DNA of 64,000 nucleotides, from sequence record PZ386974.1. The stretch is one strand, 5' to 3'. Under the pieces are notes generated by a model. That model searched no databases, was not told the DNA's origin, and was given only the letters and a program-made list of their open reading frames with translations. Source of the stretch: a phage. Shown piece by piece: positions 28,879-41,702 of this stretch (positions are counted from its first letter, which is position 1; each line of letters starts with the position of its first letter). The translations under genes and the position numbers were made by a program.

Positions 28879-29051
28879 TTAGTTTCTCTTAAGGTTGGGG
28901 CCGTTCCGTGGCACATGTTAGGTCCTTCGACTCGCTATGTAAACCCATTACCGCACTTGGGCTCGACCTTATTACAGGTTGGAAAAGGTACATCACTCAG
29001 AGGACTCGACGTTCATGAGGAGAGGTTGCGTTTCCCTTTATTAGGCAAGAA
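28879..29051. other. GC-rich non-coding island with repeated (G)CTCGAC motifs
   Basis: About 170 nt with no convincing ORF, visibly more GC-rich than flanking DNA; motifs gggctcgacc, ggactcgacg, tcgactcgc. Confidence 0.4.
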
Positions 29052-29381
29052 TTATACTCTAGGCTTTTGAGCTTGTTTGGTATTGGATTCCCATGCAGCT
29101 TTGGTAATTTTGTTAGCGGCATAACCAAAGGCATTAGATAGAACACCTTTAGAGTTGAATACATCCAATCCAATAAGTACACCGGCTGTGTTAAATTTAG
29201 GAGCAAAGTACGCATTAGTTTTAGAAAGAGCTTTTTTCAATTCAGGGTCTTGAACCAAACCATCAAAAACGCCTTTACTATTTACTTTATATGTTACTTT
29301 GGGATTTTTACCTTCTTCGATAGCAGCTTTCTGTTCCGCAGATAATGTAACTTCAGTGATAAACTCTTGATACGTTTTCAT
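29052..29381 (-). CDS. Internal-protein-like protein with capsid targeting sequence (MKTYQEFITE)
   Basis: N-terminal decapeptide matches the T4 IP capsid-targeting consensus MKTYQEFIAE; 109 aa, basic. Confidence 0.6.
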   Translation of the reverse strand: MKTYQEFITEVTLSAEQKAAIEEGKNPKVTYKVNSKGVFDGLVQDPELKKALSKTNAYFAPKFNTAGVLIGLDVFNSKGVLSNAFGYAANKITKAAWESNTKQAQKPRV

Positions 29382-29406
29382 TTTGTTCCTATTGTTTTAA
29401 TTTATG

Positions 29407-29721
29407 TTATTCTTTAGGGAAGTTTTTAGAGTATGCATCATAAAGTTTATTACCGATGCGACGGAAGACTTTAGCTGCAAAACGGTTTTCAGGGTTTTTA
29501 ATCATGATTTGCATCATGTAAGTTCCTGCATCCGAAAGAGCTTCTTCATAGTACCCATTAATTTCTTTAAGGGTCCTACGTTTACCACCAGGACCATCAA
29601 CAGTAATTTTCCATTTACCTGTAGAAGTGCGGCTCGGTGGCTCAACTTGTTCAATCCAAATATAACCACCTTCAACGCGTTGGTTGGCGGATTCTGCAAT
29701 AAATTCTTTATACGTTTTCAT
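29407..29721 (-). CDS. Internal-protein-like protein with capsid targeting sequence (MKTYKEFIAE)
   Basis: N-terminal CTS; 104 aa. Confidence 0.6.
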   Translation of the reverse strand: MKTYKEFIAESANQRVEGGYIWIEQVEPPSRTSTGKWKITVDGPGGKRRTLKEINGYYEEALSDAGTYMMQIMIKNPENRFAAKVFRRIGNKLYDAYSKNFPKE

Positions 29722-29785
29722 TTTTTGTTTCCTTGTTTGTTTTGATAGAGTAATTATACCATATTAATACTTAAGCGTAAACAAT

Positions 29786-30046
29786 TTAAGCTTTACCGCC
29801 AGAAATAATTCCGAAGTTGTTAAAATCGTATCCAATATCGTCAACATCTACTTTAGGGCTTGCTACAACATAAGCAATTTCACTACGTTTTGCATAGGTG
29901 TTGATTTCTTTACCATCGCCACCTAAGAAAGAATACCCATTACGCTTTAATGAGCCAAAGTCTTCCGCATCACCAATGAAAGCTTTAACTTTAAATTTAG
30001 GACCTTTGGCATCTGCTTCAATGATAAATTCTTGATACATTTTCAT
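29786..30046 (-). CDS. Internal-protein-like protein with capsid targeting sequence (MKMYQEFIIE)
   Basis: N-terminal CTS variant; 86 aa. Confidence 0.55.
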   Translation of the reverse strand: MKMYQEFIIEADAKGPKFKVKAFIGDAEDFGSLKRNGYSFLGGDGKEINTYAKRSEIAYVVASPKVDVDDIGYDFNNFGIISGGKA

Positions 30047-30052
30047 TTTTCC

Positions 30053-30466
30053 TTAGTAAATTGATTTACCATAGTATTTGTACCAAGTCGGACGTTGAGC
30101 AATTTTTTCATCTAAGCGTGCTTGACTTATCGCAATGGACGCTTCGGACGGGACGTAATTATTACGAAATTCGGCAGGGATGTCGGAAATATCCTGGACA
30201 GTCGTGTCCTTGATTTTGAAACCACGTTTCAAGCATTCAGCGATTAGCTCGATTTGTCGTAAACGTAAAAATTCGAGTTTGTCGTAAAAGAATGTTACGT
30301 GACCTGTGCCTAAGATAAATGTTGGAGAGATTTTAAAATCCTTTACACGTTTACCGTTTTGAACATGTTTACGGACTGCACCAAATACGCGTGGTAATTC
30401 ACGATACTCAGCCATAAGATGTTGGTCGGCCAGTTCAGAAACAAGCGTTAAATTGATACGGGTCAT
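30053..30466 (-). CDS. denV: Endonuclease V (pyrimidine dimer DNA glycosylase) DenV
   Basis: Track ORF 30053..30478; ATG at 30466 gives 138 aa [34 protein letters not shown]..., near-identical to T4 DenV as recalled. Confidence 0.93.
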
Positions 30467-30469
30467 AAT

Positions 30470-30525
30470 TTCCTCCAAGTAGTTGATGAATGTATAGTAT
30501 CAAAGTCCTTGGAGGAAGTAAACAC
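30470..30525 (-). promoter_or_regulatory. PeSL upstream of denV (TCCTCCAAG/CTTGGAGGA arms, GTTTAC -35)
   Basis: Plus strand cctccaagtagttgatgaatgtatagtatcaaagtccttggaggaagtaaac; coordinates approximate. Confidence 0.45.
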
Positions 30526-30806
30526 TATTTTTCTGAAGCGCCTGAAATATATTTTTCAAGACGTTGTTTCATTAGCGAGCCGTTCTTAGCGATTTCTTCT
30601 GGTTTATCGCACATACGCAACAGTGCTTCAAGCTTAACGATATCACTGGTGCGCTCAAATTTGCGAGTATCTATCTTACTAGCAAGTTCAGAAATACGTG
30701 CTAATAGACTTTCAGCTTCAACCAAAGCTGCACCTAGCTTAGTTGCAAATGTGTCGGTAGCTTCGTTAAGAATAGATTCTGATAAAAATTCACTATATGT
30801 TTTCAT
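30525..30806 (-). CDS. Internal-protein-like protein with capsid targeting sequence ([10 protein letters not shown])
   Basis: Track ORF 30525..30821; ATG at 30806; sits between e and denV, the T4 ipII/ipIII position. Confidence 0.6.
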
Positions 30807-31291
30807 ATATACGCTTTCCAAGTTCCTGTTTTAAATGTTGAGATTACGCGTTTCGCGCGATTAGGTGTCTGACGATACCATTTAGATTGGGCTAGATTTA
30901 CTGCCGCTTCGTCCCAACGTTTCTGTTGAAGCATACGAAGAGAATTAGTAAAACCGGCGACGCCTGCTACACCCATTTGGAAGACCATATTGACCAACGC
31001 ACATCGACGAACCGCATCTAAAGAATCATACACCGGTTTAAGTTTAGCATTACCCAAGATTCCGCGAACGGCTTTATCAACGTCTTCATTAAATAGCTTT
31101 TCAGCCTCATCAAGGGTAATTGTACCGTTGCATTTACGACCGATCATTCTGTCAAGTTCAGCTTTAGCTACGGCTAAAGACGGGTTCTTTGTTACTAAAT
31201 GGCCTATGCCAATCGTCCAAAAGCCTTCAGTGTCTTTGTATAAAGTCAGTCTAAGACCTTCGTCATTACGAAGCATTTCAAATATATTCAT
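30803..31291 (-). CDS. e: Lysozyme (endolysin) e
   Basis: Track ORF 30803..31303; ATG at 31291 gives [32 protein letters not shown]..., matching T4 lysozyme as recalled (catalytic E11, D20, T26 context). Confidence 0.95.
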
Positions 31292-31319
31292 AATACCTCC
31301 CACGTTTATAGGAGGTATT
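31292..31319 (-). promoter_or_regulatory. Hairpin sequestering the gene e Shine-Dalgarno, with a late-promoter-like TATAAAC in the loop
   Basis: AATACCTCC-tataaacgtg-GGAGGTATT directly before the ATG on the minus strand; same architecture as T4 gene e. Confidence 0.55.
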
Positions 31320-31325
31320 TATTAC

Positions 31326-31784
31326 TTATAGGAGTGTAGTGAGCACCTTATATAATGATTTGCCCATTACATATTCCCATTGAGAAGGTTTAATTAAAGC
31401 GAATGCATCAAATTCAGGAATCTGTCGTCCGTCTGGGAATGTATGATAGGAATTACAAACACTGTTTCTGAATTGCTCGTGCTCTACAGGGATGGTATAT
31501 AGGAACAGATGAATATTCTTATTGTCTGAGTAATGATGTTCACCTAGGTCTTTCAGGAAGGCAGGGTCATATTGTGTAAACCCAGTTTCTTCTTCGCATT
31601 CACGAATAGCGGCTTCAATAGGAGATTCACCAGGCTCGACACGTCCTTTAGGAATATCCCACCGATGAGCTAAAGAACCTTTAGGACGAGAACCAGTTAC
31701 ACGCCCCATGAATAATTCTTTATCTTCGGTAAGGAAAATAATACCGGCTGATAGTTCTTTCACTTTATTTTTCTTACTCATCAT
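31326..31784 (-). CDS. nudE: Nudix hydrolase NudE
   Basis: Nudix box GRVEPGESPIEAAIRECEEETGF; 152 aa; immediately upstream of e as in T4. Confidence 0.85.
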   Translation of the reverse strand: MMSKKNKVKELSAGIIFLTEDKELFMGRVTGSRPKGSLAHRWDIPKGRVEPGESPIEAAIRECEEETGFTQYDPAFLKDLGEHHYSDNKNIHLFLYTIPVEHEQFRNSVCNSYHTFPDGRQIPEFDAFALIKPSQWEYVMGKSLYKVLTTLL

Positions 31785-38537: not shown

Positions 38538-39002
38538 TTATTTAATTTGTTTAGCAGACCAGATACGGTCTTTAATAAGTTTTTGGATATCTTCAACATA
38601 CTCAAGGCTATGAGCGTGAGGATTATCTTTGAAGCTATGTGCTCGTGCCAGTTTCTGGCCTTCTGTTTTGATTACTAAAAGCTCTTTAAGAATTGCTTCA
38701 TACTTAGAAATAATTCCTTTGGCGATATTTTTTTCTTGAGCGGCTTTAGGGTCCGCTTTTGGTGCAGGTGCTTTACCTGTAGCTTTCTGGAACAATTCAC
38801 CTGATGCAGCTAGGCTTTTAAAAACTCGGCTAACAGTATTAGCATTAGTAAAACCTTCGGCTTTAAAATCTCTAATAAAACGGAAACGTTCTTCATCAGA
38901 GGCGTCTTTGTAAGAATATTTACCTGCTTGAATTGCTGCAATCGCAGCGGCTTTTACATCTGAACTAGATTGTTCAGTCAAAAATTCAGCGTATGATTTC
39001 AT
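38538..39002 (-). CDS. Internal-protein-like protein with capsid targeting sequence (MKSYAEFLTE)
   Basis: 154 aa, Lys/Ala-rich; N-terminal CTS-like decapeptide. Confidence 0.55.
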   Translation of the reverse strand: MKSYAEFLTEQSSSDVKAAAIAAIQAGKYSYKDASDEERFRFIRDFKAEGFTNANTVSRVFKSLAASGELFQKATGKAPAPKADPKAAQEKNIAKGIISKYEAILKELLVIKTEGQKLARAHSFKDNPHAHSLEYVEDIQKLIKDRIWSAKQIK

Positions 39003-41369: not shown

Positions 41370-41415
41370 TTTGATAGGACTACTATAACATAGTCCTATC
41401 AGCATGTAAACTACT
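41370..41415 (-). promoter_or_regulatory. PeSL: GTTTAC -35, inverted repeat GATAGGACTA/TAGTCCTATC with -10 TATAGT in the loop
   Basis: Plus strand gttttgataggactactataacatagtcctatcagcatgtaaac; same arms as the 23151 copy. Confidence 0.5.
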
Positions 41416-41702
41416 TATAGAAGAGTTTTTGCAATAATTTTAAGCTGAGCTACAGAAATATGCTTAGCTTTAAACAGTGCAGTCTCTTCAGCCGGAGAGA
41501 TAACAATAGTAGCGCCATCTTTCTTAGCAGACCATCCATCCCCTAAATAAACAGTACCTTTTACTTCTTCGCCGTCAACCAGACTAATCATTGGTTTACC
41601 CTCGCGTCCTTTATTTGCTTTAATAACTTCGGAAGTAAGGGTTGCTTCGGTCAGAGTAGAAACGTTAGCAACAGGTGATATAAATTCTTTATAGGTTTTC
41701 AT
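41415..41702 (-). CDS. ipI: Internal protein I (IPI), capsid-injected anti-restriction protein
   Basis: 95 aa; MKTYKEFI... CTS and ...GREGKPMISLVDGEEVKGTVYLGDGWSAKKDGATIVISPAEETALFKAKHIS... near-identical to T4 IPI as recalled. Confidence 0.9.
   Translation of the reverse strand: MKTYKEFISPVANVSTLTEATLTSEVIKANKGREGKPMISLVDGEEVKGTVYLGDGWSAKKDGATIVISPAEETALFKAKHISVAQLKIIAKTLL

Follow-up and report, generated by a model that had tools for sequence, protein, structure and literature searches.

Gene content of the e-denV interval

The window, by which we mean the whole 64,000-nucleotide stretch of phage DNA analysed here (sequence record PZ386974.1), comes from an RB69-like T4-type phage of the genus Mosigvirus. 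Its 28900-31400 region shares 97.9-98.6% nucleotide identity with RB69 and with many phages of Escherichia and Shigella. Read along the minus strand, the genes are nudE, e, an Ip5-like ORF, denV, three further short ORFs and vs.8. The Ip5-like ORF is the only one with homolog support between e and denV. The features of the interval and its borders are as follows.

31292..31330, minus: e leader, with a hairpin and two near-consensus late-promoter boxes
30803..31291, minus: e, T4-type lysozyme (Pfam Phage_lysozyme, E=8e-14)
30525..30806, minus: internal head protein gene, almost certainly of the Ip5 family, 93 aa plus stop; ortholog of RB69ORF127c
30762..30806, minus: targeting sequence and predicted propeptide, codons 1-15, with candidate gp21 sites LSE10 and LNE15
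30528..30761, minus: predicted mature domain, residues 16-93; predicted three-helix bundle, 8.6-9.2 kDa, pI 6.3-8.1
30467..30524, minus: PeSL-like promoter/stem-loop before denV, identified from sequence and fold; right-hand border of the cassette
30053..30466, minus: denV, endonuclease V (Pfam Pyr_excise, E=7e-14); its first ~80 bp lie inside the patch given in the next line
~30390..30930, minus: recently exchanged patch, 94-100% identical to phages ime09 and Kha5h (sliding-window identity on MAFFT alignments)

The Ip5-like ORF runs from an ATG at 30806 to a stop codon at 30525. A sequence-only reading of this DNA had reported a targeting-sequence ORF of 94 aa here; the T4-type targeting sequence does stand at the N-terminus, but 282 nt make 93 codons plus the stop, so that the reported length is one residue too many. 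A longer version of 98 aa starting from a TTG at 30821 was considered and rejected, because all homologs begin with MKTY and the targeting sequence has to be N-terminal. It lies in a region that is 98% identical at the nucleotide level to RB69, where its ortholog RB69ORF127c is named hypothetical in GenBank and "internal head protein" in RefSeq (NP_861817.1).

An ORF of only 93 codons might be a chance or annotation artefact, the more so as a longer antisense ORF overlaps it (30490-30834, plus strand) and as domain libraries returned nothing: Pfam had no match for it (four of the six targeting-sequence ORFs of the window were run), and NCBIfam had none for any of the six. Against this, the frame has a dN/dS of 0.12 when compared with the 89%-identical ortholog of phage VR20, its differences from ime09 are all synonymous (seven, with no non-synonymous change), protein-level homologs at 37-51% identity occur in hundreds of phages and the structural model is a confident helical bundle. 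The ORF is a real gene with purifying selection acting on its frame; the conservation pattern effectively refutes the chance-ORF explanation, which retains next to no probability.

Probable coupling to e and the denV promoter/stem-loop

The TGA of e and the ATG of the Ip5-like gene overlap as ATGA (30803-30806), which leaves no space for a promoter between the two. The same 4-nt overlap is found in ime09 and Kha5h, and in VR20 the overlap is 14 nt as annotated. Upstream of e, a hairpin at 31292-31319 (-16.3 kcal/mol, z=-3.7) sequesters the Shine-Dalgarno sequence, which in T4 e is likewise sequestered by a hairpin. Two late-promoter boxes with one mismatch each, AATAAATA (31316-31323) and TATAAGTA (31323-31330), are accompanied by TATAAACG with two mismatches, and lie close to the positions of the two consensus late boxes TATAAATA in the T4 e leader. 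Across the window, one-mismatch boxes are no more frequent than expected by chance, and the e promoter is therefore assigned by positional homology only. No consensus late promoter TATAAATA lies close to the Ip5-like gene. It is reasonable to infer that this gene is co-transcribed late with e and then translationally coupled to it. The window also bears on the start of e itself, which GenBank places five codons late in RB69 (MLRNDEGL); here the T4-like start MNIFEML (31277-31291, minus) is present, with GGAGG before it.

The overlap with e, kept in ime09 and Kha5h and paralleled in VR20, together with the missing independent promoter, could be read as marking an unpackaged cytoplasmic late protein that works with the coupled lysozyme, for instance as a lysis accessory factor. 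This is highly improbable. The protein has a full targeting sequence at its extreme N-terminus, its T2-type homolog adjoins 57B and ip7, far from e, and neither the sequence nor the all-helical soluble model shows an evident hydrophobic or signal segment. To our knowledge, T4 lysozyme requires no such partner.

On its other side the Ip5-like gene is bordered by the control element of denV, in which a -35 box GTTTAC (30518-30523) and a -10 box TACTAT (30494-30499) are combined with a 10-bp stem. In this stem (30508-30517 with 30470-30479; -17.8 kcal/mol, z=-3.0) the promoter spacer pairs with the Shine-Dalgarno sequence of denV and sequesters it. The architecture of this leader hairpin (30470-30523 in the window; 3357-3416 in L003) is common to T4, whereas the stem arms differ in a compensating manner, being UUCCUCCAAG/CUUGGAGGAA in the window and UCUCCUGUAG/CUACAGGAGA in T4. 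In T4, ipIII, ipII and denV are each preceded by a promoter/stem-loop element of their own; the Ip5-like gene has none. Elements of this kind (PeSL) have been described and proposed as a driver of module shuffling in T4-type phages (PMC2839356). One was found on the denV side of the Ip5-like gene only, the e side being formed by the gene overlap.

Family membership and distribution

The protein matches the profile of PHROG family 3499 ("internal head protein") over residues 1-87 with E=1.2e-46, and Ip5 of phage T2 matches the same profile with E=1.8e-47. BLASTP aligns the two proteins directly with 48% identity over 84 aa (E=5e-23). We consider it almost certain that the ORF encodes a member of the Ip5 family. 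The VR20 ortholog (genus Gaprivervirus), which lies in the e-denV interval as well, is annotated "ip5, similar to T6 Ip5". The sequence-only reading had seen no obvious match between the body of the protein and T4 IPII or IPIII, a view that high identity to either over the full length would have overturned. BLASTP against both T4 proteins gave alignments limited to residues 1-11, and the PHROG families differ (3499 for the Ip5-like protein, 7857 for IPII, 5341 for IPIII and, for completeness, 4363 for T4 IPI). The observation was therefore sound, and the body is unrelated to either T4 protein, since nothing beyond the 11-residue leader can be aligned.

The distribution of the family was determined by tblastn over 50,697 phage records. 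The e-adjacent Ip5 type was present at >=80% identity in 239 records (133 of these at >=99%), and the T2 Ip5 type, at 46-51% identity, in 258; the two types occurred together in 13 of 497 records. For comparison, T4-type IPIII was found in 261 records and IPII in 198, so that the present arrangement is about as common as that of T4. Orthologs with a protein 100% identical to that of the window occur in many records, including those of ime09, JS09 and Kha5h. When 1.84 billion representative proteins were searched with a profile, seven matches emerged in total, the family's own members included; among them were two metagenomic relatives of 94 aa (P0011 and P0012), both starting with MKTY. Two long proteins at E~2e-5 in the same search were discounted, as they match just short coiled stretches. 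The family is confined to T-even-like phages. A word-indexed protein search recovered near-identical proteins only, and a sequence profile search of the PDB gave chance-level matches only.

Leader and predicted processing sites

The N-terminus of the Ip5-like protein is a T4-type capsid targeting sequence (MKTYQEFIAE type) beginning at residue 1, with Y4, F7, L8 and E10. Mutagenesis of the T4 IPIII leader has attributed targeting mainly to residues 4 and 7 and processing to residues 8 and 10 (PMC9026906), and all four of these positions are retained. A search of the six-frame translation of the 64 kb for the motif M-[KR]-x-[YF]-x-[ED]-[FLIWY] gave six occurrences, every one at the start of a minus-strand ORF, and the motif is therefore no chance pattern.

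At the end of the leader, both LSE10 and LNE15 conform to the (L/I)xE type of site recognised by the prohead protease gp21. All nine sequences of a family alignment have E15 together with either L or I at position 13. E10 is variable: T2 has K there, one other member has V, and a further one lacks the residue. In the metagenomic proteins P0011 and P0012, E15 is absent and LAE10 and LSE11, respectively, are found instead. Each family member thus has at least one (L/I)xE site within residues 8-15, and the protein of the window has both. The predicted mature product is either 83 aa (9.2 kDa, pI 6.3) or 78 aa (8.6 kDa, pI 8.1). In the RB69 reference, the leader of ORF127c (L001 3125-3406) is scrambled at residues 5-12 by a compensated frameshift (MKTYMNFYQNLSLNE); Y4, F7 and LNE15 are retained there, and E6, L8 and E10 are lost. 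The Ip5-like protein is probably packaged and processed. A literature search on RB69ORF127c, Ip5 and the virion proteomics of RB69-like phages found no report of function, virion detection or injection.

Predicted structure of the mature domain

AlphaFold2, run on the family alignment, predicts a three-helix bundle with helices at residues 15-44, 53-65 and 69-92 (mean pLDDT 79, pTM 0.60). Throughout the nine-sequence alignment there is no variation in the motifs KLGxALxEAExL..RIxELA and EIAKNG.xMKxRLE or at residue C66. Foldseek with this model gave nothing significant against the PDB, and its sole match in BFVD was a family member from phage VR26. No likeness in sequence or fold to IPI*, IPII, IPIII or known anti-restriction proteins was found by BLASTP or in the PDB and BFVD. 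The predicted fold fits a small protein-binding module, yet it is not diagnostic; being generic, it says little about the target.

Historically, internal proteins were viewed as basic and DNA-associated, and the gene is dispensable in many relatives, where different IP genes are found instead. Both points would agree with a head-filling or DNA-associated role that is non-specific and involves no dedicated cellular target. We nevertheless regard such a role as improbable: the predicted mature protein, with a pI of 6.3-8.1, is not strongly basic, and the long invariant motifs shared by subfamilies only 48% identical, taken together with the dN/dS of 0.12, argue for a specific binding surface. 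Moreover, T4 internal proteins have been proved to have specific targets (PMC12373910).

Exchange of the cassette

When the window is compared with T4 by blastn, homology running through nudE and e ends at 30808, at the e stop codon, and restarts at 30502, in the promoter hairpin of denV. Some 305 bp in the window thus stand in for the 1120 bp that hold ipIII and ipII in T4. The strongest sign of mobility is given by phages ime09 and Kha5h, which belong to Tequatrovirus and carry the same Ip5-like gene (the ime09 protein is 100% identical). The patch of high identity to them begins near the end of e, takes in the Ip5-like gene and the PeSL element and extends into the start of denV; on either side of it, identity is only 56-80%. 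Both the gap in T4 homology and this patch uphold the replacement of a cassette that had been proposed for the locus from its sequence. The patch has the signature of a homologous exchange that took place recently, the crossovers lying in the conserved genes on either side. The Ip5-like gene thus occupies the e-denV interval as an exchangeable cassette lately moved between phage genera. In ime09 and Kha5h the crossover points fall within coding sequence, in e on one side and in denV on the other, suggesting ordinary homologous recombination through conserved flanks.

That the Ip loci of T-even phages are variable is textbook knowledge. Around denV, gene orders differ further from one relative to another. 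The order is e - ip5-like - denV - ip4 - vs.8 in ime09 and Kha5h, e - ip5 - denV - ip10 - hypothetical - ip7 - vs.8 in VR20, and e - ip5-like - (denV deleted) - ip10-like - ipIII - 157-aa ORF - vs.8 in Escherichia phage ECO07P2, where the 157-aa ORF equals ip4 of ime09 and Kha5h in size and position. In ECO07P2 (Tequatrovirus; L008 2782-3300), denV is reduced to its first six codons (MTRINL), which are joined to the tail of an ORF125-like gene and followed by the Ip10-like gene, ipIII and the 157-aa ORF.

Other targeting-sequence genes of the window

The Ip5-like gene had been described as a single IP-like gene. It is indeed alone in the e-denV interval, but three more ORFs with a targeting sequence lie directly downstream of denV (29052-30046, minus), and the IP cluster has therefore been rearranged around denV, not reduced. 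Compared with T4, the cluster of the window lies mostly on the far side of denV. Two further ORFs of this kind are at or near the second Ip locus. The five are as follows.

29786-30046, minus: RB69ORF125c; targeting sequence; phrog_2667 "internal head protein"
29407-29721, minus: Ip10-like; targeting sequence; 72% identical to VR20 Ip10; phrog_3966
29052-29381, minus: RB69ORF123c; targeting sequence; phrog_3966
38538-39002, minus: 154-aa basic protein starting MKSYAEFLTE; phrog_2280, function not annotated
41415-41702, minus: IPI homolog, near-identical to IPI; phrog_4363

In the IPI homolog, an LTE19 site agrees with the 19-residue propeptide of IPI. The Ip10-like protein has 104 aa in the window and in VR20. 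ORF124c of the RB69 reference (L001 2050-2322) has only 90 aa and diverges at the C-terminus, which suggests a frameshift or a sequencing error in that reference. Just upstream of the Ip10-like gene sits the best sigma-70-type match of the region (29753-29781, minus), with TTTACG, a 17-nt spacer, TATAAT and an upstream TG, agreeing at 10 of 12 positions; it suggests early expression of some IP genes in addition to late expression. In the segment 28879-28996 (minus), vs.8 begins at the equivalent of M41 of T4 vs.8, and another reading frame upstream still contains a remnant of the N-terminal extension known from T4 (QPVIRSSPSAVMG). Either a frameshift in the lineage of the window or an over-extended start in T4 would account for the difference.

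Proposed function of the Ip5-like protein

The gene lies in one of the two variable Ip loci of these phages (e-denV-vs.8, the other being 57B-tRNA), and what is known of the proteins encoded there guided our functional proposal. In a 2025 study, T4 Ip1, Ip2 and Ip3 were each shown to block one distinct type IV enzyme of the GmrSD family, with no cross-protection, and the authors proposed that all genes of both Ip loci target GmrSD variants (PMC12373910). Since Ip1-3 share nothing among themselves beyond the leader (PMC12373910), missing similarity to known inhibitors is to be expected and is a weak criterion. Furthermore, IPI* inhibits the GmrSD enzyme of CT596. T4 IPIII is needed for infection of ECOR17, where a leaderless form works when expressed in the host (PMC9391042). 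The arabinosyl-hmC DNA of RB69 is cut by GmrSD enzymes (PMC6024577).

Taking these data together with the leader and the conservation pattern, the best explanation of the whole, which we hold to be fairly probable, is that the gene encodes an Ip5-family protein that is packaged, trimmed and injected and that may act as an inhibitor of a GmrSD-type enzyme. Having no promoter of its own, the gene would be expressed from the e transcript, its translation being coupled to that of e where the two overlap as ATGA, and the leader would dock the protein into the scaffolding core of the prohead. The protease gp21 would then take off 10 or 15 residues, after LSE10 and/or LNE15, and the remaining near-neutral three-helix bundle of 78-83 residues would stay in the head until ejected with the DNA. 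Once in the cell, the mature protein would most likely block one specific host defence protein, which by analogy with T4 Ip1-3 may be a particular type IV enzyme of the GmrSD family that cuts DNA containing sugar-modified hydroxymethylcytosine. The parts of this proposal differ in strength. That the protein is an injected anti-defence protein of some kind is, by the same analogy, quite probable; that its target is a GmrSD variant, the likeliest single role to judge by position, leader and analogy, is offered tentatively.

Packaging and injection would also be compatible with a target of another type, either a different first-line defence or a host process at the start of infection. The protein has no link in homology or fold to the three known GmrSD inhibitors. 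In addition, RB69-type phages have arabinosyl-hmC DNA and Tequatrovirus phages glucosyl-hmC DNA. A 100% identical Ip5-like protein is present in both, and its target would therefore have to be either indifferent to the sugar or something other than a modification-dependent nuclease. Nor does every packaged protein inhibit restriction, as T4 also packages the ADP-ribosyltransferase Alt (PMC9026906). On the other hand, all three Ip-locus proteins solved so far inhibit GmrSD enzymes while being alike only in the leader (PMC12373910), and a mature protein of 78-83 aa is too small for a plausible enzyme. We judge a non-GmrSD target to be rather unlikely. A further possible reading, put forward with reserve, is that the Ip5-family protein is the dedicated injected inhibitor of an as yet unassigned defence enzyme, which could belong to another GmrSD clade or be a first-line nuclease of a different kind.

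If such an inhibitor is indeed encoded here, its near-identical copies in Tequatrovirus and RB69-type phages would show genera exchanging these inhibitors as ready-made cassettes through recombination in e and denV, the conserved flanks. Today the variable Ip loci of T-even phages are regarded as arsenals of injected, highly specific anti-restriction proteins, with targets known for Ip1, Ip2 and Ip3 only. About 500 sequenced phages carry Ip5-family genes, 239 of them the e-adjacent type; widespread and with no assigned target, the gene is a reasonable candidate for target hunting, and it could matter when the host ranges of therapeutic T4-like phages are predicted. The gene is an ordinary genome feature, and the swap at its locus, though real, is ordinary for T4-like phages. 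Gene, annotation and locus polymorphism are already on record: it is RB69ORF127c, annotated as an internal head protein, and belongs to the recorded Ip5 family. The present analysis adds modestly to this record with the Ip5-family assignment, two candidate processing sites, a predicted three-helix fold and mapped breakpoints of the inter-genus exchange.

Comparison with known systems

The Ip5 family, with Ip5 of T2, T6 and RB70, was reportedly named by Repoila et al. in 1994 (EMBO J 13:4181). The Ip5 proteins of these three phages share with the protein of the window the type of leader, the motifs KLGxALxEAE and EIAKNGxxMKxRLE and the (L/I)xE15 site. The genomic setting differs, ip5 of T2 being found at the ipI locus beside 57B and ip7, whereas the gene of the window lies between e and denV and is joined to e by ATGA. 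Compared with T2 Ip5, the subfamily of the window has 9 additional residues at the C-terminus and an inter-helix segment extended by 2-3 residues. RB69ORF127c has the same position and the same neighbours as the gene of the window, from which it differs by the scrambled residues 5-12 in the reference leader.

With regard to its borders, the cassette resembles those described for PeSL elements (PMC2839356) on the right, where an early promoter and stem-loop precede denV; unlike them, it ends on the left inside the 3' end of e, where there is no PeSL. T4 IPII and IPIII occupy the same e-denV interval, carry the same N-terminal targeting sequence and presumably follow the same route as the Ip5-like protein would, through the prohead core, gp21 trimming and injection. 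T4 has two genes in this interval, each with its own promoter/stem-loop, and the window has one gene with none. Ip2 and Ip3 of T4 have known GmrSD targets (PMC12373910), whereas none is known for the Ip5-like protein. T4 IPI* (Ip1) provides a further parallel, as a small GmrSD inhibitor delivered by the capsid through the same type of targeting sequence.
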